A stretch of 64,000 nt of DNA from the NCBI GenBank assembly GCA_019751815.1, contig JAIEMW010000001.1, positions 130,197 to 194,196 on the forward strand, given 5' to 3'. Position 1 is the stretch's first letter. Each line of letters begins with the position of its first letter. The notes beneath the pieces are model-generated. The model had not been told where the DNA came from. It searched no databases and was given only the letters and a program-made list of their open reading frames with translations. Both the position numbers and the translations under genes were made by a program. The DNA is from Cyanobacteriota bacterium. Lineage in GTDB: Bacteria; Cyanobacteriota; Vampirovibrionia; Vampirovibrionales; Vampirovibrionaceae. This document shows positions 3,532-45,240 of the stretch, piece after piece.

Positions 3532-3675
3532 AGAGGGGGCTCCAAGGGGTAATCAATAGAATCTTCAGAATCTACACGCACACACACATCACAGCAGCAT
3601 ATTATCTAACAAATAATAAAATAAAGAGAGGCTTGTTATTGCCAAATTGGGTGAAAGATATGTCGCTGTGTAACG

Positions 3676-4437
3676 TTACTGGGTTTTTCCCGCTTTTTGG
3701 GCGCTTCGATAGGCCTCCAATTGTTGGGCGGCCTTATTGCCTTTCTGGTTCATCACCACGGCGGCCAAGAGTACACCAATCAGGATAGGTAGCCCGGTAA
3801 AGGTGCTTGTGAGCATCGTCCTTTCTAGATCCTGAAAATATTGATCCGCCCATTGTTTGGTGCTTTTTAGTTTTTCGGGCTCAATGTGTTTGGAGAGCAC
3901 CGTATCGGCCCATTGATGAAAGACCGCTTTTTCTGCCTGAAATCCTCGGCTATCGGTTTGATTGAGGGTTTTAATCAGGGCCAGTGTGGCGGTTCTGTCT
4001 TCTGGGGTGAGTTGGCTCATCAGGGGTTTGTAAATGTCCGCTTGGTTACTGTGTGATGCAATACCGGCATGCATGCTGGCGATATAGGCAAATAGGCTCG
4101 CCTGCTGGAAAGGCTCTTTCAGATCGCCGGGGAGTTTCTCTGTTTGGTTGAGATTTTGTTGCAGCACAGCCGCTGCTGTGGATAGTTGCTGCATTTGAGA
4201 AACAGTACCCGCATTTTTTCCACTGAGCAGGCCGTTTACTATTAAACCGCTGATCATCACACCAACAGCCCCTAGCCACCAAGTGATTGGCCCAATTCTA
4301 GGGGGCTTAAGCTCGTTACCAAACAAAACAGACTGATGACATCCAGCAAAGGGCGTTAATGTTTGAGGAGACCCTCTATGCGTATACTTTGCCTGGGTAA
4401 ATGTCGCTGATTTCTCAGTTCGAGTCAGTCTGGTCAT
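3676..4437 (-). CDS. hypothetical membrane protein (two predicted TM helices)
   Basis: ORF with a strong SD (AAGGGGGA) before an internal ATG at 4435-4437. The longer form from 4548 would overlap the mutL 3' end. Hydrophobic segments WWLGAVGVMISGLIVNGLL and LPILIGVLLAAVVM. Confidence 0.5.
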   Translation of the reverse strand: MTRLTRTEKSATFTQAKYTHRGSPQTLTPFAGCHQSVLFGNELKPPRIGPITWWLGAVGVMISGLIVNGLLSGKNAGTVSQMQQLSTAAAVLQQNLNQTEKLPGDLKEPFQQASLFAYIASMHAGIASHSNQADIYKPLMSQLTPEDRTATLALIKTLNQTDSRGFQAEKAVFHQWADTVLSKHIEPEKLKSTKQWADQYFQDLERTMLTSTFTGLPILIGVLLAAVVMNQKGNKAAQQLEAYRSAQKAGKTQ

Positions 4438-4477
4438 TATTTCCCCCTTTAGTGTGAATCCCTTTAGCGTTTTTCTT

Positions 4478-6361
4478 TTATGCGTTGACCGGTAGGCTTT
4501 GTCGGTCAAAAAAGCGTTGTATTTCTCCAGAATCAATCGTGTGGGCAATGGGCCGGCCGTGAGGGCAGGTCCATGGCAGGGTGCATTTTAGCCAGTTTTG
4601 AATTACCAAGGTCATTTGTTCATGTTTTAGTACATCGCCGGCGCGAACGGCACGGTGACAGGCCAGTGTGGCAATTAAATGATCCAGATTTAATTTCATG
4701 AGGCCTGTTTCTTGAGGCTGCCCCAACAGGGAGATAAACAAATCTTCGGGATTCCCGCGGTCTACACCCGCTTCATTCAAAACCAGGACAGGCACACTCA
4801 GTAAGGATAAAAGCGCTGGAGAGCCCGTCTGCTCAGTCAGTGAATAGGTGAAGCCAAGGCGGGAAAAAATATCCCGGGATTCTTCCAACAGGGCAGCTTG
4901 CGAGGCAGAAATCCCAATGGGGTCGCTGAAAAGCTTTTTCTGAATGGTCTCGGGTGGCTGATTGAGTTGTTCAGAAAAGCGCTCAAACCAGACGCGTTCA
5001 CTGGCGATGTGCTGATCGACAACCAAAAGACCTTGAGGGGTTTCCACCAAGATATAGGTGTTAAATAATTGTCCAATCACTCGGACAGGCTGCGGGTTGT
5101 ATTCAGACGAGGATATAGGCATGTCTAGAGGTGTTTTTGAATGAGAGCCAGAGCTATTTAAGGCTGTCAGCGGCTTTTGCAGTGCCATGGTAGAGGCGGT
5201 ATCGACGGAAAATAGGGGCATTCTGTTCTTTTGCCCTTGCGCGCTTTGAGAATAAGACAGAACGGGCGGGCTCATGAACGAAGGTGATGAGGAAGATTGC
5301 GGCGAGGCAGCAGGAGAGGGCTGTCTGGCATAGAGGTCTTGTCCTTGTTCAGTCAGAGTTTGCACAACGCCATGGCGAACAAAGCTAAACACTTCATTGG
5401 GTTTGGCGTAACGCACCTCTCTTTTGGTGGGATGTACGTTAACATCCACCGCATCCCCTGGAATGGAAAGCAGAAGAATCGAAACAGGATATCTGCCGTA
5501 AGGCATCAATGACTCAAAACCCGCTTCCACCGCTTTTTGGAAAGTGGCACATTTCACCAGCCGTTGATTCACGTAGTGGATCATCCACCGCTTAGAACTC
5601 TTGGTCACATCTGGGGCGGAAATAACCCCCTCAATACGGCGGTTTGAAATCGGGTCATCAAACGCGACAGGATAGAGAACAATGCCTTCTTTACTAAATT
5701 GAAAGACTTCTTCAACAGCCTGCAGACGGTTACCACTGCCCGAGGTTTTGAGAACAGGCTTGCCGTTTAGGGTGAGAATTAGCTGAACGTCGGGATGGCT
5801 GATAGCAATGGCTTCGACCAGTTCTTGGATATGAGCCATTTCGGTTTGCGGGCGTTTTAAAAATTTGAGCCGGGCCGGGGTGTTAAAAAAGAGATCGTTC
5901 ACCTCCATAATGGTTCCAGGGGCGCATCCTGCTGGTTCAGTAATCGGCTCATGCTCTTCGTTAAAGAGAACGCGTGTCCCTGTCTCACTAGAAATATCAA
6001 CACGACGGGTGAGGCAGACCATTCGAGACACGGCACTGATACTGGCCAGAGCCTCTCCTCGAAATCCCAGAGTCTGCAAGCAGTCTAAATCTTCAATCTG
6101 GTTAATTTTGCTGGTCGCATGGTTGTAAAAAGCCAATTTGGCATCTTCGGGGCTCATGCCCTTGCCATTGTCCGCCACGCGGATGGCACGTCCACCGTCA
6201 CCAATGCTGATATCAATCTTGCTGGCTCCTGCGTCTAAGGCATTTTCCAGCAGCTCTTTTACCACTGAGGCAGGACGTTCGACCACCTCACCAGCCGCAA
6301 TTCGGTTGATTAAATGGGCGGGCAATAGATGGATAGAAGTGTCTTGAGACAAAGCAGACAT
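4478..6361 (-). CDS. mutL: DNA mismatch repair protein MutL
   Basis: N-terminal GHKL ATPase motifs IHLLPAHLINRIAAGEVVERPASVVKELLENALDAGASKIDI; 627 aa. Confidence 0.93.
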   Translation of the reverse strand: MSALSQDTSIHLLPAHLINRIAAGEVVERPASVVKELLENALDAGASKIDISIGDGGRAIRVADNGKGMSPEDAKLAFYNHATSKINQIEDLDCLQTLGFRGEALASISAVSRMVCLTRRVDISSETGTRVLFNEEHEPITEPAGCAPGTIMEVNDLFFNTPARLKFLKRPQTEMAHIQELVEAIAISHPDVQLILTLNGKPVLKTSGSGNRLQAVEEVFQFSKEGIVLYPVAFDDPISNRRIEGVISAPDVTKSSKRWMIHYVNQRLVKCATFQKAVEAGFESLMPYGRYPVSILLLSIPGDAVDVNVHPTKREVRYAKPNEVFSFVRHGVVQTLTEQGQDLYARQPSPAASPQSSSSPSFMSPPVLSYSQSAQGQKNRMPLFSVDTASTMALQKPLTALNSSGSHSKTPLDMPISSSEYNPQPVRVIGQLFNTYILVETPQGLLVVDQHIASERVWFERFSEQLNQPPETIQKKLFSDPIGISASQAALLEESRDIFSRLGFTYSLTEQTGSPALLSLLSVPVLVLNEAGVDRGNPEDLFISLLGQPQETGLMKLNLDHLIATLACHRAVRAGDVLKHEQMTLVIQNWLKCTLPWTCPHGRPIAHTIDSGEIQRFFDRQSLPVNA

Positions 6362-10261: not shown

Positions 10262-11602
10262 CTATAAAAAGCTAGATTGCACCGTTTGTAGGTAAAATCG
10301 AGTCACACTGTTGGGTTCTTGTCTGTCTTTTTCAAGCACCAGAATCCCGCTATTCCCAATTTTATTGAACTGAACATTGGGTGTGAGGTAATCTAGCTCG
10401 TTTTGCTTACTGCCATCGGGTTTGTATAAATTCATCACTGGCTTCCAACTGCCGGTATTGAAATAATAGGCCGATTCATTCATCGGTATCACGGCGGGCT
10501 GGTGCGTGTGCCCAAAGGCAATAAAGCGGTAGCCTTTTTCTGCAGCCAGCTTTCGGGCCATATTTAATTGGTATTTATTGGAATGGGTCCGTTTCACCAA
10601 ACTGGTGATCACAAAGGTGACAATCGGCAGTGCTGCGGGCAAATGGACAAACCAGTTGAGGAGTGTTGCCATAAACCGACGCGGTAAATGAAGCTGTTCT
10701 AGTAAGGGTCGAGTGGTATTGGCATCCAATATTTCTGCCAGCACAGATCGAATAATACTGTCGGCTGTCTCGTGCCAGCGACCTGTGAATAGCTTTTGCA
10801 TGGTTTCTGGATGCCCTTGATAGTGATTTGCAATGGTTTGTATCCACAGGGGTACCAAAGAAAGCGGTCTCAAGTATTCGATATCTCGTAATTCTTGCCT
10901 AACGGTTTCTATCAGTTCGGCGCTATAGCCGGCCTCATTCAGCTTTTGGCTGACCATTTCCACAAAACGGTTGATCAGCAAGATATTTATATAATCACCA
11001 AAGGCATGACGCTGTGTGGCTTGAAAGGCAGTAGGGACTGAATTAAATGGGTCAAAGCGATGCCCATGTTCTGCGTAAAACCCCAATTCTAGAAGCTCAA
11101 AACTGTGACTAAAATGAATTTTTTCGGCCAGTGATTCGGGTAAAATATCGGAGTCACTTTGACAAATCCGCTGTTTAATCAATCCCTGTGCAGCAGGTGA
11201 GTGGGCCAACATGCCGTCGTGATTGCCAATCACAAAATGTAAATGGGTGTGCTTATGTCTTAAAAAGGCGTGGAGCTCGTTAATAATTGATTGATTATTA
11301 TTGATAATGCGTTCGATGGTTTTACATAGAATGGGTTCTACCACCTCATCCGTATGCTCCCAGGGTAGCATTGGGCTAAACCAAGACCCGGTGATATCAA
11401 AGACATCCCCGTTTAATAATAATGTTGTTTCTTGATGACTGCTTTTGGCCTCATGATTGAGTCGGGTTAAAAATTCCCGAAAAATTTTCCGCCGTGGATT
11501 TTCGGTAAATTCCGTGCCGTCGTAGTCATGGTCGTTCAGATGGACGTCACTCACAACCACGAGTTTCAGTTGAGAAGGAATTAAATGGGGAGGATGCGTC
11601 AC
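10262..11602 (-). CDS. calcineurin-like metallophosphoesterase with C-terminal extension
   Basis: Metallophosphoesterase motifs VVVSDVHL, GDVFD, GNHD, GHTHQP; 446 aa. Confidence 0.75.
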   Translation of the reverse strand: MTHPPHLIPSQLKLVVVSDVHLNDHDYDGTEFTENPRRKIFREFLTRLNHEAKSSHQETTLLLNGDVFDITGSWFSPMLPWEHTDEVVEPILCKTIERIINNNQSIINELHAFLRHKHTHLHFVIGNHDGMLAHSPAAQGLIKQRICQSDSDILPESLAEKIHFSHSFELLELGFYAEHGHRFDPFNSVPTAFQATQRHAFGDYINILLINRFVEMVSQKLNEAGYSAELIETVRQELRDIEYLRPLSLVPLWIQTIANHYQGHPETMQKLFTGRWHETADSIIRSVLAEILDANTTRPLLEQLHLPRRFMATLLNWFVHLPAALPIVTFVITSLVKRTHSNKYQLNMARKLAAEKGYRFIAFGHTHQPAVIPMNESAYYFNTGSWKPVMNLYKPDGSKQNELDYLTPNVQFNKIGNSGILVLEKDRQEPNSVTRFYLQTVQSSFL

Positions 11603-28611: not shown

Positions 28612-30357
28612 TTGGCGAACGCTGGACAACCCATACCAGGGCAATTTATGCCGGGGCAGCCTAATTCGGGAATGCCTTTTTATCCTGGACAAATGCCGAT
28701 GCCTCCTGGTGGCTATATGCAACCCGGTGCTGTAGCCTTAGATCCTCGTTTGCAGCAACAGTCTAGACTCGCAGCACAGCAAGCGCTGGCGAATGGAACG
28801 CCACCTGATAAGTTTGAATCTCCCTTTCCATCACCGTCACAAATGCTGATGGGTGGAGCTGCCGGTATCGGGCTTGCAGAACTGATTCGACTACCGTTTA
28901 ACCGCGATAACCACGCGTTAATTCGAGCTGCCCAGTGGTTAGATCATTTGCCTGGTATCCGTTGGGCGAACAAACATATTGCCAGTGGTCAGTCCTGGTT
29001 GCTCAAGTCAACCAACAATAGTCCGTGGACCAAGCAGTTTTTGTATCAAATACCACCAGAAGCTGCCGAAAAACTGGCGATTCAGCAAACTGTGCAGGGC
29101 TTCATCAAACAGTTACCCGCAGACCTTTTGAAGCAACCCGCCGTGGGCCCCCTGCAAAAGGCAGCGACCAAGGAACAATTGGATACGGCTCTGGTTATTC
29201 TGCGGCGTCATTTTTCACGCGCGCAAGAGCCTGCTATTGTCGATTCGCTTCTGAAGAAAACCACCGTTTCTCCCAGAATCGCCACATCACTGGCCGGGAA
29301 AACCATTCCACAAGCAGAACGGGTGATAGCGGGTCTTAAAAAGCTGACTCCATCTGAGTTGGAAGCCCTGCAAGGACTTCTGAAAACGGCATCTCGCCAT
29401 GCTGACAAAGCGGCAGAAGTGGCCATGAAGCAGGCCAGTAAAAAGCTTCCCAAGCAAGTCTTGGGACTGTCCAAGCGAATTGAAGGTCTGAACAACCACT
29501 TCTTCCCGGTCTACCGGGAACAATTCCACTTGATGGATCAGCTGACCCGTACCACGGCGAAAGGGGCGAAACCGATTGGGCCTATTGGTCGTTTCTTCGC
29601 GGGCACGATGAACTATATCCGCCGGATCTTTGGAGGGGACAGTCTCACCAGCTATGTGGGATCGTCGGCTAAAAAAGCCGCCGGGCAAGAAGGGATTCTC
29701 GGTCGTCTGATGGGGCCCTTTATGGTAGGGGCTCTGGCAATTGGACAATCGTTTAGTGAGGCACACAAAGCAGAAAAAGGCGAAAAGGTAAAAACCTTCT
29801 TCCATGATTTTCTGGGCACCGGGATTGGCAGTTTTGTCGGCTGGGAGATTGGTCGCAGTTTGTTAAACCGCACCGGGGTCGTCTCCAAACTGATGGGCAG
29901 TTTTGGCAGTAAATTTATCCGCGTTTTACCTCGCTTTATTCCAGGCATTGGTGGTTGGGGCTTCACCCTAGCCGGTGCCGCCGTCGAACTTCTCTCCATG
30001 TTCGTGATTGCCATTCCCTTTCAGCGTGCCGGTGAGTGGATTGCCCACCGACTTTTTGGGAAACCCAACAAGGTCCTCGAAGAGGACCTTAAAGAAAAAG
30101 GCATCGTGCTGGCAAAACCATTGCCCGCTGGGGGCGATCAGCAGCAGCGACTCCGTCGGCCAAGTCGTTTTGAAGGTTTCCATCAGGCCAGAGCGCATCA
30201 TGTGCAAGCGCCTTCCGCAACACCGAATATTTCCTATTCACTCTCACCAGAGGATATTGCCCGCAGTGAGGCAACGGCCTCTGCCCAGCAGCAAGAAAAA
30301 GCCCTGTTGGATCAGATCAAAAACTTTGGCTCCCCGATGCAGGCATATCACGACTAA
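28612..30357 (+). CDS. hypothetical protein: Pro/Gln-rich N-terminus, helical middle, Gly-zipper-rich hydrophobic C-terminal region
   Basis: 581-aa ORF (TTG at 28612, alternative ATG at 28648). The C-terminus has repeated GxxxG/small-xxx-small segments (GPFMVGALAIGQSF, GTGIGSFVGWEIG, IPGIGGWGFTLAGAAV). Confidence 0.45.
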   Translation: MANAGQPIPGQFMPGQPNSGMPFYPGQMPMPPGGYMQPGAVALDPRLQQQSRLAAQQALANGTPPDKFESPFPSPSQMLMGGAAGIGLAELIRLPFNRDNHALIRAAQWLDHLPGIRWANKHIASGQSWLLKSTNNSPWTKQFLYQIPPEAAEKLAIQQTVQGFIKQLPADLLKQPAVGPLQKAATKEQLDTALVILRRHFSRAQEPAIVDSLLKKTTVSPRIATSLAGKTIPQAERVIAGLKKLTPSELEALQGLLKTASRHADKAAEVAMKQASKKLPKQVLGLSKRIEGLNNHFFPVYREQFHLMDQLTRTTAKGAKPIGPIGRFFAGTMNYIRRIFGGDSLTSYVGSSAKKAAGQEGILGRLMGPFMVGALAIGQSFSEAHKAEKGEKVKTFFHDFLGTGIGSFVGWEIGRSLLNRTGVVSKLMGSFGSKFIRVLPRFIPGIGGWGFTLAGAAVELLSMFVIAIPFQRAGEWIAHRLFGKPNKVLEEDLKEKGIVLAKPLPAGGDQQQRLRRPSRFEGFHQARAHHVQAPSATPNISYSLSPEDIARSEATASAQQQEKALLDQIKNFGSPMQAYHD

Positions 30358-34755: not shown

Positions 34756-35532
34756 ATGACAAAAAAACCGATCGTGGTCTGGGTGGCCAGTACAAACCCT
34801 CATAAATTAAACGAGCTTCAGGTTATCTTGCGACTGCTAAAACTTGAGCAAGAAATGGTGTTCAATATCCCGGATAATTTGGTGGATGTGCCTGAAACGG
34901 GCCTGACTTTTCTGGACAATGCCAGAATCAAAGCCGAACATTTTGTTGAGAGATTGAGAAATATAAACGCTGATAATCATGACTGGATTCTGGCGGAAGA
35001 CTCCGGGCTGATTGTTCCTGCACTGAATGATATGTACGGATATGATCCCTTTCCGGGTGTTTTTTCTAACCGTTGGATGACCCCCACTATTCGGGATGAG
35101 TTGCTCACAGCACCAATGAACTCAGACATTCCCTCCTATATTGATTCACCAAAAATAACGGATATAGATAAAAACTGCGGTATATTGGCCTTGTTAAACC
35201 ATAAAATGCTTAATGGTAAAGACGTGAGTCGAGAAGCTCGCTATGCTTGCGCTATGTCACTCTGGAATCTGAAGACTGAAATCGCGACCGCATACGGGGA
35301 AATGTCTTTGCAGGTTCGAGAGCTAAACGAGCATACTTTTTTAAATGAGTCTGCACAAGCAGAAAAAAATGATCTCCCCCGTGGCTTTGGGTATGATCCC
35401 ATTATGCTTTCTGTGCCCAGTATGCGGTGCTTAAGCCAGATGAGTATTGAGGAAAAATCTGCCATCAGCCACCGGGCCAATGCATTTAGGCAACTCATCG
35501 CCTTAACTAAACGGGGCCCCGCCCATAATTAA
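34756..35532 (+). CDS. rdgB: non-canonical purine NTP pyrophosphatase (Ham1/RdgB family) with an internal insertion
   Basis: VWVASTNPHKLNELQ (N-terminal K motif), AEDSGL, PRGFGYDPIM, EEKSAISHRANAFRQL. About 250 aa versus the typical ~200. Confidence 0.75.
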   Translation: MTKKPIVVWVASTNPHKLNELQVILRLLKLEQEMVFNIPDNLVDVPETGLTFLDNARIKAEHFVERLRNINADNHDWILAEDSGLIVPALNDMYGYDPFPGVFSNRWMTPTIRDELLTAPMNSDIPSYIDSPKITDIDKNCGILALLNHKMLNGKDVSREARYACAMSLWNLKTEIATAYGEMSLQVRELNEHTFLNESAQAEKNDLPRGFGYDPIMLSVPSMRCLSQMSIEEKSAISHRANAFRQLIALTKRGPAHN

Positions 35533-36246
35533 ATAACTTTGGGTGTTATGCGTTAAATAGGCTTTACGACCGTATTTTTGAGAGATACTGTCTGTGTATC
35601 CACCGCCATTGACTTCGGGGTATACCACAAGCGTGTTAATTTTTAGTCTCACAATGGGTGCGGTGATATCATCACCGGTGACTCCGTTCGTTGGGTTCCC
35701 GGTCGTATTGTAGGCTTGAAAACAAGCATTTGACCGAGTTGCCGAATCATACACCGTTGAAGAAAAATTGCCACAGCGGACTTTAAACGTGACCGCATTG
35801 GCTGGTCCGATGGAAAAGGCGTCGCGTCGGTTTAAATTGCTCTGAGCTTTGGAGGGAGAACTTCCGGGACAATTTGTATTGGTGGTGATTGCGGGATTCA
35901 CATTGTTCCATGAGCAGCGTGTGATGGTTTTGTTGGTATCATCAACAATATACTTAACCGTGTGTAGCTGAGACCCTCCTAAAAAATCATTGGTATCTAA
36001 CACCACGATATCGCTGTCATTGATCGAACTGGTTTTGATATTTCGGGCATACTGAAAATCTTGACGCATCCAATCCAATACATTGGAAAGAATGGTCTGA
36101 GAGTAAGTATACACCCGATCTGTATTTTGACCGTTCAGCATTCCGCTGGCAACAGAAGAGACAGCGGCAGACAGGGCAAGAAACATCACCAGGGTCACGG
36201 CAATCTCTATGAGACTAAAACCAGTTCTTCGGGGCTGAGCCAACAC
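35503..36246 (-). CDS. prepilin-type N-terminal cleavage/methylation domain protein (type IV pilin-like), paralog B2
   Basis: Leader MLAQPRRTG | FSLIEIAVTLV, with Gly-1 and Glu+5. Its 3' end overlaps rdgB convergently by 30 nt. Confidence 0.8.
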   Translation of the reverse strand: MLAQPRRTGFSLIEIAVTLVMFLALSAAVSSVASGMLNGQNTDRVYTYSQTILSNVLDWMRQDFQYARNIKTSSINDSDIVVLDTNDFLGGSQLHTVKYIVDDTNKTITRCSWNNVNPAITTNTNCPGSSPSKAQSNLNRRDAFSIGPANAVTFKVRCGNFSSTVYDSATRSNACFQAYNTTGNPTNGVTGDDITAPIVRLKINTLVVYPEVNGGGYTDSISQKYGRKAYLTHNTQSYLIMGGAPFS

Positions 36247-36271: not shown

Positions 36272-37060
36272 TTAACCGTAAGGTGTATCCGCTAATATGG
36301 CATAGCTTTCAGAGGCATGAGTGTAATAAGGAATTCTTCGATACTTTTGAGACACAGTATCGGTGTATCTATTGGTGCGGTTGTTAACCAGGGGGTAAAC
36401 GACAATCGTATTAATTTGCAGGCGCGATATGGCGTTAGTGGGATCATAAGCACCCCACCAATTATTACCCAGTTTAGCTTCTCCATTAGTGTTATAGCCG
36501 TTAAAGCAGTAACCATTTTTCGCGGCTGTATTGTAATTCGATGTTGAAAAACGTCCACATCGAACCCTAAATTGGACCATATTGCTAGGCCCGATACTCA
36601 ACGGACGCTGTGCCATCGCACTGAGACTGGGATTATATGCGCCAAAAGCGTTTACGCTTGTATAACGCCAGTTTTCGGTATATTCCCAACGGGTAAGATA
36701 TTTTGTCGCGCCCCAATCATAGACGGAATAAATAACAATTCTCTCTGGTGTTGATCCCCCGGAAGAATTGGGGATACTGGTTTTAAGCATGATCTGCTCA
36801 TAAGAGCGTGTTTGCCAAGGTATAAAAACATCTTTGGCATACTGAAAGTCAAGCCGCATTTGATCGAGCATATTATTCATTATGACTTGGTTGTAGCTAT
36901 AAACCTGATCTGTCGTTTTGTTGGCGAGCATGGTGGTAATTGCGCTGGCAACAGTGGCTGACATAATGGTGAACAGCACCAAGCCAACCGCCATCTCCAT
37001 CAGAGAGAAGCCTCTACTCAGTTGCAGGGCTCTTGAGTTGGCATCATTGATTTGAGACAT
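36272..37060 (-). CDS. prepilin-type N-terminal cleavage/methylation domain protein, paralog B1
   Basis: ...QLSRG | FSLMEMAVGLVLF. Shares blocks with the downstream gene (DQMRLDFQYAKD / FRVRCGRFS / INTIVVYP). Confidence 0.8.
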   Translation of the reverse strand: MSQINDANSRALQLSRGFSLMEMAVGLVLFTIMSATVASAITTMLANKTTDQVYSYNQVIMNNMLDQMRLDFQYAKDVFIPWQTRSYEQIMLKTSIPNSSGGSTPERIVIYSVYDWGATKYLTRWEYTENWRYTSVNAFGAYNPSLSAMAQRPLSIGPSNMVQFRVRCGRFSTSNYNTAAKNGYCFNGYNTNGEAKLGNNWWGAYDPTNAISRLQINTIVVYPLVNNRTNRYTDTVSQKYRRIPYYTHASESYAILADTPYG

Positions 37061-37161: not shown

Positions 37162-37845
37162 TTATAGGGCCGCTGCTGTATTGGAAAATGCCGCGGCATC
37201 AACTGTAGCGAATCGATCACCAAGCTTGGAAATAGGGAGATCCCAATCCGCTGCGGCTAAGCACGACACCTTATATTTACCGAACCCACCTGTACATTTG
37301 GGTTTGGGAGGTTGGCTGGGCCCCACTTCTACGATTCGTTGTAAATTGGCAGGACCGGCCAGTGTAAACGAGTTTGCAACAGCCTCCGAGTTAATATTGG
37401 TTGCATTCACACCCCCGTTGGAGAGTAGGTTCATTTTGGCTATATTTCGTCCCCCAACAGTGACGGTAATTTCTTTGGTGTCAGGATTGGTCACTGAGAG
37501 GACTAAATTACTGGATGAAGAACCTGAAACCATATCCAAAACAGCATTTAAATCACCGTTGGTAAAATCAACGGTCTGCTTGTCCAAGGTGTTGGATACT
37601 TGAGAAAACGCTTTTTCCAATGCCCCTTGTGCCACTGCTGCCGCAAAACCATTGGCTTTAGGGATACCCATTGACATTTTACTGTAACTTACGCCCATGA
37701 GAACAGCCACAAGTACTGAAGTTACGGCAATCTCTAACATCGTGAGGCCTCGTTCGGCTTTGGGGGCAATGAATGCCTGTTTTATTTTTCTGCTGATGTT
37801 AGCAATCATAAACTTTAATCCCTCTAATTCTCTCTGCCGAATCAA
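37162..37845 (-). CDS. prepilin-type N-terminal cleavage/methylation domain protein, paralog A2 (C-terminal Cys pair)
   Basis: ...KAERG | LTMLEIAVTSVLVAV. C-terminus KCTGGFGKYKVSC, a possible disulfide loop. GAGGGA SD before the ATG. Confidence 0.75.
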   Translation of the reverse strand: MIRQRELEGLKFMIANISRKIKQAFIAPKAERGLTMLEIAVTSVLVAVLMGVSYSKMSMGIPKANGFAAAVAQGALEKAFSQVSNTLDKQTVDFTNGDLNAVLDMVSGSSSSNLVLSVTNPDTKEITVTVGGRNIAKMNLLSNGGVNATNINSEAVANSFTLAGPANLQRIVEVGPSQPPKPKCTGGFGKYKVSCLAAADWDLPISKLGDRFATVDAAAFSNTAAAL

Positions 37846-38111: not shown

Positions 38112-38702
38112 TTAAGCAGGAGGCAAAGCACTAGCCCAGGCGGCAGCAGTGCTTTCAGGAAAGCGCCCGCCCATGGGAACTGGATCAGGGATCGCTCTGC
38201 CCCGTCTACCGCGTCCTCCTGTCGGTCCTATTTCGATAATCCGGGCAAGCGTTGCATCGGGTGTAATGGTAAATTGTGATGTGAGAGAGGGATCGATACC
38301 CAGGGCTTTAATGCTACCGTTGGGTTGAATTTGATATGACGCTAAGCGAGGGAAGCCGGGAGCACTTAAAACAAATTTTTTATTGGTAACATCCGTCACA
38401 GAGAGTACCAAGTTGCCACTCGAAGAGCTGGATACCAGATCGAGTGCGGTATTGAGGTCATTAAAAGTTAGCCCGTCAGGTCCATTAACCGGTTTATCCA
38501 GCGTATTGGTAACCTTGATAATGGCCTGCTCCACAGCCGCTTGGGTGGTGGCTGCCATCAGTCCGTTGGCTTTGGTGGGTGCTTGGTTATACTTAGCGTA
38601 AGCAAAGGCAGAAAGTGTTGCTACGAGAACCATACAAACAGCCATTTCGACCATAGAAAATCCCAAGGTCTTAAGCCGTGTCGGTGTAAAGGCATTGGGC
38701 AT
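38112..38702 (-). CDS. prepilin-type N-terminal cleavage/methylation domain protein, paralog A1 (candidate major pilin)
   Basis: MPNAFTPTRLKTLG | FSMVEMAVCMVLV, a 14-aa leader from the ATG. An upstream TTG at 38720 is unlikely to be the start. Followed directly by the strong terminator. Confidence 0.75.
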   Translation of the reverse strand: MPNAFTPTRLKTLGFSMVEMAVCMVLVATLSAFAYAKYNQAPTKANGLMAATTQAAVEQAIIKVTNTLDKPVNGPDGLTFNDLNTALDLVSSSSSGNLVLSVTDVTNKKFVLSAPGFPRLASYQIQPNGSIKALGIDPSLTSQFTITPDATLARIIEIGPTGGRGRRGRAIPDPVPMGGRFPESTAAAWASALPPA

Positions 38703-38998
38703 CGAAATTAATTTATTCAAATGTTAACTCCTTCTTAGAAAAATCTCTCAGATCTCTAAAATCTCTCGTGGTGTTTTTTCCTCTCGGTGGATTGATATCA
38801 CCAAACAGCAATTAAGGTCTTATCGACACCTTCCTGAAAATCTAAACAGAAACAACATAATTTGTTACATTGCGTGTTTGAGACCTCCCTTTGGTGAGGC
38901 CCTTCTGTGATCCCGCACGGAATCCGTCTGTATCCGGTGTTAAAATGAAGATTCAGGCCCTTTTTCAAAGAGAGTTATTGTAGAGAGTCACTCCTTCT

Positions 38999-40202: not shown

Positions 40203-43200
40203 ATGGATGTGGAAAATTCACCGCTCAGGCTTGCAGAAGGTCCCACGGGATCTGGAAAGACGCAGTGGCTAATACAAAACGCCTGCGATTTTCTTGCCCC
40301 CCCGCAAGCGAACCCCTCAAGCCATCCCTCGATCAATCCCTCAAGCAATTCCGATCAATTGCTGATTCTCACCAGTAATCGCGCCCGGCAATTGGCCTTT
40401 CGCAATGCGCTGACAAACAAACTAGCTGATACAGGAAGCAACATACAGGGCGGGGCCCTCGGCGGTTTGATGATCTACACCTTCTCTGGCTGGGTGCGCA
40501 CACAACTCCAGAACTACTGGCCTTTGGTGGAAGAAGCAATTGCACGTCAGATGGGAAGCGGCGAAGCCAGCATTCGTCCTTTGCAGCTGGCAGGTTATGA
40601 ACAGACAGAGTTATGGCTGAATGAACTTTGGCAATGGGGTTGCCAGCAGCATCCAGAATTGGCACCTGTCATTAAGGGCAGTGCACGGATGTATGTGAGC
40701 CAGCTGGTACGGCGAGCCCGCTTGCGTTCAGAGAACAATCTAACCAGGTCTGAGTTTTATCATCGTGATGGCCTTCTTGAAAATCCACTTCAGACCATGG
40801 TGAAAGAGATTGAGCAGACATGTGACCGTTGGAGCTATGTGCTTAGAGCCTTAGATCCTAATAAGCAGCTGGACATGTTCTCTTGGCTGCTGAAACATTC
40901 TGAAATTTTTCAAAAAGCCTGTGGTTTCCCCGCCATTCAGGCGGTTCTGGTGGATGATGTGGATGAAACCCACCCTGCGCAACAGGCTTACGTCGAATGG
41001 TTGCTTCCACAAGTTGATTTTCTGGCAATGGCGGCTGATCCAGAAGGTGGGTCCCGCCGCGGTTATCTCAATGCCTACCCCGCAGGGTGGCAGGTGCTCA
41101 AATCAAAGAATCCACAAGTCCCAGTGCTGCAGCTTCCCCCCATTACGGAACACGGAAACTTAGACAACGCCAATCGGCTTTTGCGAAACTGGCAATCTGC
41201 TTACGGTCCCTTTGAATGCATGTCTCCTGATGGGGTGAGAGTCCATAATTCTCAACTTACACGGGTGGAAATGTTTGAGGCAGTGGCCAACCGAATAGAG
41301 GAAGATGCAACGCATAGCCCTGAGCAAATCGTATTGGTGTTGCCCAAAGCAGATCGCCTCAGTAAAACGGCCCTTTCCTTGTGTTTAAACCGTCGGCGAA
41401 TTCCTCATTTTTGGTTGACAGGGACACTCAGGCCGGTTGATGATCCTCTGTGTCGTGGCTTTGTGTCGCTGATTCAAATACGATACAGCGCCTTATGGCA
41501 ATGGCCCTTATCGCGAATGGAATGGCACCATGTGTTTCACGTGGCCTTGAATATTCCTCAGTTTCGCGGGGATAAGGTGAGTGATGCCCTCCATTTGCTG
41601 ATTGAAAAACTCGTGCAAGGTGTTATTTCTCCTCTTGAGTTAGACTCCTCTGAGCTGTGGCGAGAGATCAACCTCTCTGATACTGCAGCGCAAGCGCGTT
41701 TAACTCACCTTGCAGGCTGGCTAAAGGATATGGGGGAGAGTGACGACACGACATTCACCTTTGAAGACTTGTTGTACCGTGCTTTTCATGATGTGGTTCG
41801 TGTTTATGCAACAGACGAAACTTTGTTTGAGTCTGTTGAGCGTGTGATACAGAATTATCAAAGCTATTGTACGGTTCAGCGGGCTCGCCGAAAGTGGGTT
41901 CAAGGGGTTGCGTCATCGGTTCAGGGAAATTTATGGGAGCACAGTCTGACACAGGATTCTCAAGATGCCAAGCGCTGGCTGGAGCAACTGAAGCAAGGCA
42001 CCGTTGCCGATACCCCGGCTGAGATGCCAGACATTCCCCAGGGAGTGGTTGTGATTGCCACACCACAAAAATTGATAGACCTGGAAATGACAAGGCCAGT
42101 GCAGTATTGGCTGGATGCCACTTCACGAGAATGGGCCCGCAGCGACGACGCAGCCCTGTACAATAGCTGGGTATTTTCTCCCAATTGGGACGGAAAAACG
42201 GTTCAGTTAGGCGAAGCGCAAGCACAAGCGCTTATTCGAGAAAGGGCCGGTCATGTTTGCAGACAGTTGATGCTGCTGGCCACAGAGAGTGTCGAAGTGT
42301 TTACCAGCGACTTGGATGACTACGGTTTCTCTCAGCATGGCCCTCTTCTGTCTAGAATGCTGCCCGTTCAAGAGGCGTTGGATATTCCCACAGAAGAGAG
42401 TTTGCTCAAGCAACTCAGGGAAGATCAAAAATCGGTTCTGGATTATCAAAGCGGCACGATGGCGATTACAGCCGTACCTGGTGCCGGAAAAACATACGTT
42501 AATGTGGTTTTGGTGCAGGCCCTGGTTGCCCGTGGTATTCCACCGGATGCGATTTTGCTTTTGACATACATGGATGCGGCGGCCAAAACGCTACTTACTC
42601 GCTTAAAGACAAGACTCAATTGGACTAAGGGGAAACTGCCTGTTGTTTCTACCCTTCATAGCTTGGCATTTCGGGTACTGATGGAGCACGATCATGCGGT
42701 AAAGTTGGGATACGATCCAGATGAAATGAAGATTATGGATGATTTTGAGAGCGATACGCTGCTCAATGAGGTGGTTTCACATACCTTGATTGAGGGAGAG
42801 CATGAAAACACTTGGCGAAAGCTGGTTGCAGCAGGAATTAAACATGCCAAAACCTTGGAACTAATGCCAGATAAGCTTGAACAGGCGCTCTCACAGCTCA
42901 AGGTGCAAGAAAACAAGCTTTATCCCAAGCTGCGTCGCTTCTTAAATGCTTACCATCTTTACGAAAACCGGAAACAACAAGCCGGGTTATGGGACTTTAA
43001 CGATCTCATTTTGAAGGCAATCCAGTTGCTGGAGCAAGAAGCATCGATTCTGGTCTATTATCAAGCCCAATTTCAGGTGATTATTGAAGATGAAGCCCAA
43101 GATTCTTCCTTGTTGATGCAACGTTTTATTGGGTTATTGGGCGGTAACACACCCAATCTGATTCGGACCGGGGATACCAACCAGTCCATCACCACCACAT

Positions 43201-44510
43201 TCAATGCGGCAGACCCCCAGGTGTTTCGAGATTTTATTGCCAGTAGTCAGCACCAGGTTGTGATGCGGCAAAGTGCCCGCTCTGCCCCGGAAATTATTAC
43301 CTTGGCCAATCAATGGCTGGATACGATCACAGGTACGCCTGGTCTTGAAAACACCTTTTCCCCGGTTGCGATGCAGCCCGTTACCACAGTGAGTGGTGAA
43401 ATCCAAAACCCAACGCTGATTGAACCCATTGTTACGACCCTCTATAACACGTATGAAGATGAAATCACCGACTTGGTCCAAACTGTTCAGCGTCTGAGAC
43501 GACACTATCCGGACAAGCAGGTGGCTGTCTTAACCTTTACCAATGAACAGGTGCTGGACTTGGCAAGGCGGTTTCAAGCGTCTGGTCTGATGGCGGTGAG
43601 TTTGACGGATAAAGCCGACTCACAACCGGTTTACCAGGTCTTGTTCCATTATTTATCTTGGTTAGAGTCTCCAGGACAGTGTGAGAGGCAGTTGGCATTT
43701 TTTGATGCCTATCAGAAAACCAGAGATGGCGCGCAGACTGTGCCCGCAAATTTCACCGAAGACATTCCTGAGGAAACCCCACATAAAAGGGCACTGAGGC
43801 AGCGAGAGTATCTCGCATCAACGGTCCTTATCCATCAACGACCAGACTGGATAGAAGATGCCACCCTGCTGCAGTGGTTCTTCGATCTCGCCGATGATAC
43901 CCGCCTGGTGTCCGACCGCAATATGACCCAAGTCATTGTGCGTGCGACGAACCGTCTGTTTGAAACGCCTGAGGCGCGAAGTCAAGGCTATTTATTTGCG
44001 CTTCAGATAGAAGAAATCCAGCGGCAGCTGAAAGAGGTCGTGACACTCATGCCCCTTGAAGCCCTGATTGAAAGATTAAGCTGGTTGATGAGCAAAGGCT
44101 TTCGCCATAATAGCTTTAATTCCGATGATTCTCTGAAAAATCCAGACGTGATCCAGGTGATGACGCTCCATAAATCCAAGGGACAAGAGTTTGACTTCGT
44201 GTTGATCCCGTTCTTACAAAAAAAAGAGTTTAAAAGCAAAGATCCCGACAAACTGGTTTACTGGTTGGACGGGCTAGCTGCCAGAGTTGACACTGCTTTA
44301 GGCCCTATCAATGAGTTGATTGAAGATCCCATGGCAGTGGCTAAGCAAGAAGAACGGGCACGACTTATCTATGTGGGCATCACTCGCGCGCGCCAGGGCT
44401 TGTTTATTTCTGCCCATGAAAAGAAAATACCTCCCTCCGTGGCTTTTACCGAACTGAAACGGCTGACGGAAAGCTTGAATATAGCTAAAGAGGGTGTCCA
44501 TGCCAACTGA
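40203..44510 (+). CDS. tandem SF1 helicase: AddB-like N-terminal ATPase/helicase-like half fused to a UvrD/AddA-like helicase, without a C-terminal nuclease
   Basis: The N-terminal half has Walker A GPTGSGKT, IYTFSGW and a degenerate motif II VLVDDVDETHP. The C-terminal half has AVPGAGKTY (motif I), LWDFNDLI, VIIEDEAQDSS (motif II), VMTLHKSKGQEFDFVLIP (motif V) and LIYVGITRARQGLFIS (motif VI). The ORF ends right after motif VI. Confidence 0.8.
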   Translation: MDVENSPLRLAEGPTGSGKTQWLIQNACDFLAPPQANPSSHPSINPSSNSDQLLILTSNRARQLAFRNALTNKLADTGSNIQGGALGGLMIYTFSGWVRTQLQNYWPLVEEAIARQMGSGEASIRPLQLAGYEQTELWLNELWQWGCQQHPELAPVIKGSARMYVSQLVRRARLRSENNLTRSEFYHRDGLLENPLQTMVKEIEQTCDRWSYVLRALDPNKQLDMFSWLLKHSEIFQKACGFPAIQAVLVDDVDETHPAQQAYVEWLLPQVDFLAMAADPEGGSRRGYLNAYPAGWQVLKSKNPQVPVLQLPPITEHGNLDNANRLLRNWQSAYGPFECMSPDGVRVHNSQLTRVEMFEAVANRIEEDATHSPEQIVLVLPKADRLSKTALSLCLNRRRIPHFWLTGTLRPVDDPLCRGFVSLIQIRYSALWQWPLSRMEWHHVFHVALNIPQFRGDKVSDALHLLIEKLVQGVISPLELDSSELWREINLSDTAAQARLTHLAGWLKDMGESDDTTFTFEDLLYRAFHDVVRVYATDETLFESVERVIQNYQSYCTVQRARRKWVQGVASSVQGNLWEHSLTQDSQDAKRWLEQLKQGTVADTPAEMPDIPQGVVVIATPQKLIDLEMTRPVQYWLDATSREWARSDDAALYNSWVFSPNWDGKTVQLGEAQAQALIRERAGHVCRQLMLLATESVEVFTSDLDDYGFSQHGPLLSRMLPVQEALDIPTEESLLKQLREDQKSVLDYQSGTMAITAVPGAGKTYVNVVLVQALVARGIPPDAILLLTYMDAAAKTLLTRLKTRLNWTKGKLPVVSTLHSLAFRVLMEHDHAVKLGYDPDEMKIMDDFESDTLLNEVVSHTLIEGEHENTWRKLVAAGIKHAKTLELMPDKLEQALSQLKVQENKLYPKLRRFLNAYHLYENRKQQAGLWDFNDLILKAIQLLEQEASILVYYQAQFQVIIEDEAQDSSLLMQRFIGLLGGNTPNLIRTGDTNQSITTTFNAADPQVFRDFIASSQHQVVMRQSARSAPEIITLANQWLDTITGTPGLENTFSPVAMQPVTTVSGEIQNPTLIEPIVTTLYNTYEDEITDLVQTVQRLRRHYPDKQVAVLTFTNEQVLDLARRFQASGLMAVSLTDKADSQPVYQVLFHYLSWLESPGQCERQLAFFDAYQKTRDGAQTVPANFTEDIPEETPHKRALRQREYLASTVLIHQRPDWIEDATLLQWFFDLADDTRLVSDRNMTQVIVRATNRLFETPEARSQGYLFALQIEEIQRQLKEVVTLMPLEALIERLSWLMSKGFRHNSFNSDDSLKNPDVIQVMTLHKSKGQEFDFVLIPFLQKKEFKSKDPDKLVYWLDGLAARVDTALGPINELIEDPMAVAKQEERARLIYVGITRARQGLFISAHEKKIPPSVAFTELKRLTESLNIAKEGVHAN

Positions 44511-45240
44511 TGGATCGTTCCAAGCAATCACTGCGGATCGCTTAAAATCCTGGTCTCGCTGCCAAAAGCAGTATGAGTTTCAGTATGTAAAAGCCCTCCA
44601 CTGGCCCACGGATACGCGCTCTTTTGCATTGGGAAAAGATATTCACAAACTTCTCGATTACCAGGCCCGCGGGCTGGATGTCACACAGGTGGTTCAGACA
44701 GCCTCTCCCTTGATTCAGCAGATGTGGGCTGCCTTGTCAGACTATCCCTTGGTAACGATGCCTGCCTTAAGAAGCGAGTGGGCCTTTCATATTGATCTAG
44801 ATCATGATCATGATTTAACGAGTGGATTATGGCTTACCGGCAGGGTAGACCGGATTGTCTGGCTGGAGCAACAAGAAATGCTCTGTATTGTTGACTGGAA
44901 GACAGGGACTGCGGTGCCAAAAGACCCTGAAAACGACTGGCAGACGCAAGTATATTTGTATGCTGTCTATGAAGCCAGGCACCAGCTTGCATTGCCAGAA
45001 AACATTACCCATGAACAGCTTTGTTTTAAGTATGTTGAGGTGCCTACCCAGAAACAGTCTGACCAGAAGCAACCTATCCAGATAAAAGAAAAAACGGTGG
45101 TGTACTCAGGCGAAAAGCATCGATTGGCCAAGCAGCGGCTTCTGGATACGGCACTCAAGCTCCAAAATTCGACAGAATATGTGTTGCCCAAGCGTTGTCC
45201 AGACAAGTATTGCGCCTATTCTTCGGTTTGCGGCATCTAA
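44500..45240 (+). CDS. PD-(D/E)XK nuclease with Cys cluster (Cas4/AddB-nuclease-like, probable Fe-S)
   Basis: ATG with AAGAGGG SD overlaps the helicase stop by 11 nt. GRVDRIVWLEQQEMLCIVDWKTG (D...E.K core). One N-terminal Cys plus CPDKYCAYSSVCG at the C-terminus. Confidence 0.75.
   Translation: MPTDGSFQAITADRLKSWSRCQKQYEFQYVKALHWPTDTRSFALGKDIHKLLDYQARGLDVTQVVQTASPLIQQMWAALSDYPLVTMPALRSEWAFHIDLDHDHDLTSGLWLTGRVDRIVWLEQQEMLCIVDWKTGTAVPKDPENDWQTQVYLYAVYEARHQLALPENITHEQLCFKYVEVPTQKQSDQKQPIQIKEKTVVYSGEKHRLAKQRLLDTALKLQNSTEYVLPKRCPDKYCAYSSVCGI

Follow-up and report, generated by a model that had tools for sequence, protein, structure and literature searches.

A conserved, uncharacterised helicase-nuclease of Vampirovibrionia with a predicted dead helicase module fused to a UvrD-like motor

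A pair of adjacent genes encoding a predicted helicase-nuclease is located at positions 40203–45240 of a 64,000-nucleotide stretch of contig JAIEMW010000001.1, and this whole stretch is referred to here as the window. The contig belongs to a metagenome-assembled genome (MAG) of the class Vampirovibrionia (Melainabacteria), which comprises non-photosynthetic cyanobacteria. The first gene is an open reading frame (ORF) with an ATG start whose product of 1435 amino acids (aa) is a tandem of two UvrD-fold modules, and the second, in a different frame and ending at 45240, encodes a small nuclease-like protein. The helicase-nuclease is real, conserved and uncharacterised; an identical protein from an NCBI MAG (P0001, 1433 aa) is named just ‘ATP-dependent helicase’. 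The GC content of the long gene is 0.493, compared to 0.486 across the window, and a scan for promoters and terminators gave nothing better than shuffled sequence. The genes and their features are the following, given in window positions:

40203–44510, forward strand: gene of the fused protein (predicted dead helicase-like module and live motor of the SF1A superfamily), from the ORF and its translation
40203–42347, forward strand: N-terminal module, aa 1–715, UvrD/Rep fold with degenerate catalytic motifs
40239–40262, forward strand: Walker A (P-loop) GPTGSGKT, aa 13–20 of the N-terminal module, retained
40953–40967, forward strand: degenerate motif II DDVDE, aa 251–255, with the Walker B Asp kept and the catalytic Glu replaced by Asp
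41037–41066, forward strand: degenerate motif III region DPEGGSRRGY, aa 279–288, with Gly-Gly in place of Asn-Gln
42399–44432, forward strand: SF1A (UvrD/PcrA-type) motor, aa ~733–1410, with complete motifs
44490–44510, forward strand: coupling junction with the Shine-Dalgarno sequence GAGGG (44490–44494), the nuclease ATG (44500) and the helicase TGA (44508–44510)
44500–45240, forward strand: gene of a predicted RecB/AddB/Cas4-family nuclease, 246 aa (PDDEXK_1, E-value 1e-19)
44560–45231, forward strand: four invariant Cys in an ‘iron-staple’ layout, C21 (44560–44562) and C233-x4-C238-x5-C244 (45196–45231)
44776–44955, forward strand: active-site motifs E93, D117, D132-x-K134 and Q148-x3-Y152, the six residues being invariant in 43 homologs

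The Pfam matches of the long protein (UvrD-helicase, 4e-46; UvrD_C, 1.4e-18) are both confined to aa 739–1406. No Pfam domain was found in aa 1–730, and neither NCBIfam nor Pfam contains a model for the N-terminal module. An AlphaFold model of this module, built on 37 homologs, showed a complete UvrD-like fold (predicted local distance difference test score, pLDDT, 86.7; predicted template modelling score, pTM, 0.88). When compared to solved structures using Foldseek, the model matched AddB best (4e-17) and UvrD almost equally well (6e-17), and the folds of Rep, PcrA, UvrD and AdnA were found to be at least as near as that of AddB. The ORF and this fold model thus bear out the original prediction, made from the letters of the window and its ORFs, that two helicase-like modules share one 1435-aa polypeptide; a helicase fold is present in the N-terminal half.

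At the sequence level the module is far more divergent, with zero matches to PDB sequences using phmmer, while a profile of six sequences reached a UvrD sequence at an E-value of 4e-4. Profile-profile alignment with hhalign matched the N-terminal module to the motor with 99.4% probability over 385 columns. In all fused loci the hidden Markov model (HMM) of the N-terminal module also matches the motor half at profile positions ~170–308, corresponding to the motif II–III region, but not vice versa, and this one-way match is direct evidence for the two halves being ancient paralogs. Judged by its profile, the N-terminal module is a degenerate UvrD/Rep-like module and a paralog of the adjacent motor. 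The label ‘AddB-like’ originally given to it therefore holds as a functional analogy only, as its fold is at least as near to Rep, PcrA, UvrD and AdnA and its profile is that of a motor paralog; the module may be AddB-like by role, not by ancestry.

The Walker A motif and the altered motif II that had been reported for this module were both recovered. G13, G16, G18 and K19 are nearly invariant across fused homologs and the unfused homologs described below, and among 38 fused proteins G13, S17, G18 and K19 are nearly invariant while D251, D252, D254 and E255 are invariant. DDVDE aligns with EDEAQD of the motor and VDEFQD of UvrD, and its second residue is nearly always Asp in the fused forms and mostly Asn in the unfused ones. 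The motif III region aligns to GDxNQSI of the motor, and in the fused family D279, G282, G283, R285, R286, G287 and Y288 do not vary. In the profile-profile alignment, the catalytic residues of the two halves compare as follows:

P-loop: GAGKT in the motor and GPTGSGKT in the N-terminal module, kept
Walker B Asp: D963 in the motor and D251 in the N-terminal module, kept
Catalytic Glu: E964 in the motor, Asp (D252) in the N-terminal module
Motif III Asn-Gln: N993-Q994 in the motor, Gly-Gly (G282-G283) in the N-terminal module
Motif IV Arg: R1026 in the motor, no counterpart in the N-terminal module

The alignment to UvrD agrees with that to the motor on which catalytic residues of the N-terminal module have been lost. 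As these include the catalytic Glu as well as the Gln of motif III and the Arg of motif IV, the module is probably a nucleotide-binding, non-hydrolysing and catalytically dead helicase.

The C-terminal half, on the other hand, has every motif expected of an SF1A superfamily member (Q742, GAGKT 760–764, DEAQD 963–967, GDTNQ 990–994, R1026 and R1395), and none of these residues varies among the fused and unfused homologs. Motors of the UvrD/PcrA type within SF1A move in the 3′ to 5′ direction along single-stranded DNA (ssDNA). The nearest solved sequences are those of PcrA and UvrD (2e-21), followed by AddA (8e-10) and AdnA/AdnB (2e-8). The NCBIfam equivalogs for UvrD, PcrA and Rep gave 112–132 bits on the motor against cut-offs of 911–1168, which argues that it is not an ortholog of any of the three. 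The C-terminus lies 40 aa from the motif VI Arg (R1395 in YVGITRAR) and 35 aa from the end of that motif, so that the long protein lacks an AddA-type nuclease, in agreement with the earlier description of a UvrD-like half ending after this motif; Pfam likewise detected no nuclease domain in the long protein.

The nuclease gene most likely starts at ATG 44500, which would give a protein of 246 aa; an alternative GTG start at 44494 would give 248 aa. The ATG is favoured by the GAGGG Shine-Dalgarno sequence 5 nucleotides (nt) upstream, which falls within the helicase gene, and by the N-terminus beginning with MP that is shared by the homologs. It lies 8 nt ahead of the helicase TGA, and the two genes overlap by 11 nt, with comparable overlaps of 4–17 nt in three homologous loci (L001, L004 and L005). 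By this arrangement the helicase and nuclease genes are translationally coupled, as had been proposed from the overlap of the start and stop codons.

The small protein is predicted to be a RecB-family nuclease whose active site is intact and which carries an Fe-S (iron-sulfur) ‘iron staple’ of four Cys. Its AlphaFold model (pLDDT 90.6) was by Foldseek most similar to RecE (8e-8), the AdnA nuclease (5e-7; TM score 0.61–0.64), the Cas4-family protein ACE1 (3e-6) and AddB (TM score 0.60–0.62), with the RecB nuclease and Cas4 also among the nearest folds. The best match by sequence profile was the AdnB nuclease, and a weak match (E-value 0.05) was obtained to the region of the C-terminal Cys cluster of AddB (1108–1140). 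The original prediction was right about a stand-alone PD-(D/E)XK nuclease, and slightly off in one detail: the protein contains six Cys rather than four, of which C21, C233, C238 and C244 are invariant in the 43 homologs. Four nuclease homologs (P0179, P0185, P0189 and P0193) carry a Lys-rich C-terminal extension of 40–55 aa (columns 500–556 of alignment A2) ending in a conserved SPFDWF/SPFDLF tail, which resembles a short partner-docking peptide and is absent from the window protein.

Around 58 full-length helicase homologs with 28–41% identity were found, and all of them conserve the architecture features described above, which makes it implausible that the layout arose by chance. Homologs of the nuclease numbered 76. 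The taxon-named homologs of both proteins are nearly all from Vampirovibrio, Vampirovibrionales or Melainabacteria, and one nuclease homolog (P0138) bears the label Coleofasciculaceae. A lineage scan using one genome per GTDB species yielded 27 loci, including those of V. chlorellavorus NCIMB 11383 and one Gastranaerophilales MAG. An HMM scan placed both helicase modules in one ORF in all 27, and the nuclease gene was found directly downstream in 21 of the 23 loci reaching far enough. The co-occurrence in related genomes that had been suggested as a check was thus observed, and the helicase and nuclease genes are co-inherited across the class Vampirovibrionia. An annotation artefact or a frameshift fusion can be ruled out, as the fused state is shared by all 27 species loci and by 96 proteins, which are monophyletic. 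Two MAG loci labelled Oculatellaceae (L013, DATNQC010000015.1) and Coleofasciculaceae (L022, DATNPJ010000015.1) encode a fused gene of the Vampirovibrionales type with 38–39% identity to that of the window, which suggests mislabelled or chimeric bins rather than carriers among the Oxyphotobacteria; a locus labelled Gammaproteobacteria (L037) has the same labelling problem.

To place the fused protein in a wider context, a profile of the N-terminal module was searched against 1.84 billion representative proteins, giving 768 matches at an E-value of at most 1e-3 and 179 at 1e-30 or below. Among the best 150 representatives, 57 were fused (at least 1150 aa) and 79 were free-standing proteins of 600–830 aa in which the whole module was matched. 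The named free-standing forms are encoded by Candidatus Sericytochromatia, Chloroflexota (Flexilinea flocculi and Anaerolineae MAGs) and Bacillota (Anaerosolibacter carboniphilus and Clostridium aciditolerans). In six of seven genomic contexts, the free-standing gene is followed by genes for a UvrD-like helicase of ~735–775 aa and a PDDEXK_1 protein of ~260–290 aa, often with overlapping stop and start codons; one unfused locus is ordered dead helicase, nuclease, motor. When the corresponding parts of the window proteins were compared to the three Sericytochromatia genes by BLASTP, E-values of 4e-17, 1e-49 and 2e-15 were obtained. All three parts in the window are hence homologous to this three-gene module, their genes are adjacent, and the module spans three phyla or more: Bacillota, Chloroflexota and, within Cyanobacteriota, the non-photosynthetic classes Sericytochromatia and Vampirovibrionia.

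Seeding a metagenome scan with the unfused modules gave 69 loci, of which 62 were distinct. Among the informative loci, the motor gene adjoined that of the dead helicase in 32 of 33, the nuclease gene followed the motor in 21 of 29, and recJ stood directly after the nuclease in 19 of 20. The identity of recJ was confirmed by Pfam (DHH, DHHA1 and RecJ_OB), and it also adjoins in four of the six three-gene contexts looked up. RecJ is a 5′ to 3′ exonuclease acting on ssDNA when ends and gaps are processed during recombination, and the link to its gene connects the unfused module with DNA repair, not with defence.

When 216 N-terminal modules were placed in a neighbour-joining tree, the 96 fused ones formed a single clade, sister to 116 unfused ones. 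Four short sequences within the fused clade look truncated, and one of these, P0233, is annotated as ‘partial’ and clusters with a 1278-aa protein. The monophyly of the fused forms argues for a single ancestral fusion of the first two module genes as the origin of the 1435-aa gene. On this sequence evidence, the long gene is a one-time, lineage-specific fusion of the first two genes of a module encoding a dead helicase, a motor and a nuclease.

Some loci depart from the common arrangement. In the unfused loci L063, L064, L066, L069 and L075 (also L060, L072 and L073), neither the nuclease gene nor recJ directly follows the genes of the dead helicase and the motor, and in L073 a nuclease homolog is found 5 kb away on the opposite strand; these may represent a nuclease-less subfamily or a dispersed arrangement. 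Three loci (L044–L046, ~2727–5890, forward strand) encode a further UvrD-like helicase of 1040–1054 aa, with UvrD-helicase and UvrD_C domains and no nuclease domain, ~2 kb upstream of the four-gene operon. A Chloroflexota locus (L007, P0344) encodes a solitary 701-aa homolog of the dead helicase beside FHA-domain and response-regulator genes, and within 7 kb there is neither a motor or nuclease gene nor recJ.

What appears to be the only earlier trace of the module is a single sentence by Hudaiberdiev et al. (2017), noting an operon of UvrD and a Cas4-like protein (pfam12705), ‘mostly Clostridiales’, in a non-defence context and with a possible role in repair (PMC5704561). This operon probably represents the module described here in its unfused state, and the three-gene module was found in Clostridia such as Anaerosolibacter carboniphilus and Clostridium aciditolerans; the paper describes neither the dead-helicase gene, the link to recJ nor the fused form of Vampirovibrionia. 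Literature searches on AddAB or RecBCD in Melainabacteria and Vampirovibrio, and on operons of helicase-nucleases with recJ, gave no description of the module.

The three parts were compared to known end-processing enzymes. In common with AddAB of the Bacillus subtilis type (PDB 3U44 and 4CEJ), the module has one live SF1A motor, an inactivated helicase-like module retaining Walker A, and a RecB-family nuclease with a four-Cys iron-staple layout (the cluster itself being predicted here) and active-site residues in the order E-D-D-K-Q-Y. The inactivated helicase with its Walker A is found here by sequence, and the nuclease of this type (E, D, D-x-K, Q-x3-Y and one-plus-three Cys) by both sequence and fold. 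In AddB, the active-site residues E915, D944, D961, K963, Q981 and Y985 have the order and spacing mirrored by the window nuclease, the iron staple has the same one-plus-three layout of Cys, the Walker A binds without hydrolysis, the Fe-S nuclease cuts the 5′ strand, and the inactivated helicase is the Chi locus (PMC3321194). The partition of the parts differs, however: the dead module is joined to the motor here and to the Fe-S nuclease in AddB, while the Fe-S nuclease is a separate protein of 246 aa and the motor is nuclease-free, leaving one nuclease instead of two. The Cys spacing of the window nuclease, CX4CX5C, is a further difference. The AddA model TIGR02785 gave 96.8 bits against a cut-off of 707.65, and the AddB model TIGR02786 matched the nuclease only, with 21.7 bits against 486.5, and neither protein of the pair is a single-chain helicase-nuclease like AddA or a single-chain AddB. 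A standard AddAB pair is ruled out by the domain partition together with these HMM cut-offs.

AdnAB from mycobacteria (PDB 6PPJ, 6PPR, 7SJR and 9NP6) likewise has two paralogous UvrD-like modules, just one of which drives translocation. Each AdnAB subunit is, however, composed of a motor and a C-terminal nuclease, giving two nucleases, whereas both modules are here in one chain with a lone separate nuclease. RecBCD also has a single nuclease, and its dead helicase RecC scaffolds and scans DNA beside the SF1A motor RecB, but the second motor of the SF1B type, RecD, has no equivalent here. RecC furthermore has no helicase motif left and contains a dead nuclease-like domain, while in the N-terminal module of the fused protein the P-loop is retained and a domain of this kind is lacking. 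The RecB model gave 78 bits against a cut-off of 696, and the three-subunit layout of RecBCD is not found here. For the Cas4 model TIGR00372 the score was 25.6 bits (cut-off 65), and as none of the loci examined contains cas genes either, a CRISPR Cas4 is ruled out. Resection by UvrD or RecQ with RecJ in the RecFOR pathway has in common the coupling of a UvrD-type 3′ to 5′ helicase to RecJ, which in the unfused lineages are encoded in one operon. Classical RecFOR resection is not known to involve a dedicated subunit of the dead-helicase kind or an Fe-S nuclease, nor are its genes known to form one operon. The pair is accordingly conserved in its lineage without being an annotated AddAB or RecB pair of standard layout, and the claim of a layout unlike described end-resection architectures stands, with NCBIfam scores far below the cut-offs and no description in the literature.

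By analogy with these enzymes, we consider the pair, with moderate confidence, to be a helicase-nuclease of two subunits processing DNA ends in preparation for RecA-dependent repair, working in an AddAB-like manner with its parts redistributed. All three parts would assemble as one complex that loads at a duplex end, where the live motor would pull the 3′ strand. The dead module would, like AddB and RecC, provide a scaffold and guide the strands, and it might also regulate the complex by sensing sequence or by nucleotide gating. Cutting of the displaced 5′ strand would fall to the Fe-S nuclease, which in Vampirovibrionia would act unaided and in the unfused lineages would be assisted or replaced by RecJ, leaving a 3′ tail for RecA. 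With a single nuclease and the 3′ strand not degraded, a Chi-type switch may be unnecessary.

Several observations weigh against this AddAB-like role. The nuclease is assigned to the 5′ strand by analogy with AddB, AdnA and Cas4. The fused loci L002, L032 and L035 lack an adjoining nuclease gene, as do 8 of the 29 unfused loci. The recJ link is lost in the fused lineage, with recJ found neither within 9 kb of the 27 fused species loci nor in the 64-kb window. Clostridia generally carry AddAB, and the unfused module may for this reason add to, rather than constitute, the main resection system there. Finally, D252 and R687 are invariant in the N-terminal module of the fused family, which leaves room for a weak N-terminal ATPase.

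The last point leads to an alternative in which both modules are active ATPases forming a tandem dual-motor enzyme, as in AdnAB or RecBCD. The fused family does keep an intact P-loop and the invariant acidic pair D251-D252, and its invariant R285, R286 and R687 could contact phosphate. The catalytic Glu is, however, Asp in the fused forms and mostly Asn in the unfused homologs, there is nothing equivalent to the motif III Gln or the motif IV Arg, conservation of R687 does not extend to the unfused forms, and AddB shows the same retention of Walker A without hydrolysis (PMC3321194). Taken together, this makes a dual motor improbable. A role outside double-strand-break repair is the more serious competitor, though still unlikely: in strand excision during mismatch repair or in RecFOR-type processing of gaps and forks, the UvrD-type helicase would feed ssDNA to RecJ and the Fe-S nuclease would be a Dna2-like flap or end trimmer. 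RecJ works with UvrD during mismatch-repair excision and with RecQ or UvrD during resection of the RecFOR type, and recJ is the strongest functional link of the module, whose motor is nearest to UvrD/PcrA and not to AddA/RecB. The AddAB that Clostridia usually already have fits such a role, as does a mutL gene in the same window (4478–6361), though 34 kb distant. Against it, AddAB, RecBCD and AdnAB, all of them end-resection machines, are marked by just this combination of dead helicase, live SF1A motor and iron-staple nuclease, recJ is unlinked in the fused lineage, and no tie to mutS or mutL operons was seen.

The original prediction also held that the pair could equally be a defence-type helicase-nuclease. 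An anti-phage or anti-plasmid function of the Gabija, Hachiman or UvrD-Cas4 type would agree with the matches of the PADLOC models GajB and RTasHel to the motor half (E-values down to 1e-41), with the weak matches of Cas4 models to the nuclease, and with the association of UvrD-Cas4 fusions with defence loci mentioned by Hudaiberdiev et al. (PMC5704561). The PADLOC matches span the generic UvrD core only, though, and are no better than those of Pfam UvrD. The neighbouring genes are housekeeping ones (nadB, nadC, the Kef-type antiporter gene kef, rimP-nusA-infB, csrA/fliW and ahcY) in an order partly syntenic between distant genomes, as seen for nadB, nadC, kef and rimP-nusA-infB, with no partner defence genes nearby. 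No relatives of the N-terminal module were found in 72,556 plasmids and 50,697 phage genomes by tblastn, nor in a scan of a viral-contig collection, and together with the neighbourhood this argues against a defence island or mobile element. The pair forms one conserved locus throughout the 27 species loci, the GC content is not atypical, the unfused form is in an operon with recJ, and the UvrD and Cas4-like operon was judged non-defence in the sentence devoted to it (PMC5704561). Membership of known defence systems such as Gabija (GajB) can be ruled out, given that the UvrD/Cas4 matches are generic and the context is one of housekeeping genes, and a defence function in general appears very improbable, so the claim of equal standing is not upheld.

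Elsewhere in the window, on the reverse strand, the mutL gene upstream of the helicase-nuclease pair encodes DNA_mis_repair, MutL_C and HATPase_c_3 domains, and a gene at 10262–11602 encodes a 446-aa calcineurin-like phosphoesterase (Metallophos), which is probably not SbcD as no SbcC-sized ORF adjoins it. Two further reverse-strand ORFs (36272–37060 and 38112–38720) have weak N-terminal methylation motifs of the pseudopilin type and stand among ORFs without a Pfam match (35503–36246 and 37162–37845); these ORFs just upstream of the helicase gene may be a minor-pilin cluster of a type IV pilus or type II secretion system. A 581-aa ORF on the forward strand (28612–30357) had no Pfam match at an E-value of 1e-5 or below.

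Bacterial double-strand-break resection is currently explained by three designs, RecBCD, AddAB and AdnAB. In a survey of 5563 genomes, 88% were found to encode one of these and 12% none (PMC6452273). The module described here is a candidate for another, as it uses the same building blocks in a different partition, occurs in at least three phyla and is tied to recJ by operon structure. We tentatively put forward, as a possibility rather than an expectation, that it is a fourth, unrecognised class of bacterial end-resection machine, consisting of a live SF1A motor, a nucleotide-binding dead helicase and an Fe-S nuclease, which ancestrally were three subunits encoded in a recJ operon and the first two of which became fused in Vampirovibrionia, where it would be the sole such machine in the cell. 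This rank would follow if the carriers prove to be without RecBCD, AddAB and AdnAB, and the class would then account for part of the 12% of genomes without any of the three (PMC6452273). What is new here, judging from the sequences, is a fusion of single origin from a three-gene module of Clostridia, Chloroflexota and Sericytochromatia that is usually in an operon with recJ. The fusion in Vampirovibrionia is a natural experiment, indicating a 1:1 working contact of the dead module with the motor. The module makes it possible to test whether a Chi-type switch is needed in a machine with a single nuclease and a single motor, what role the retained P-loop of a dead helicase has, a question shared with AddB, and how the fusion and fission of subunits reshuffle such machines.

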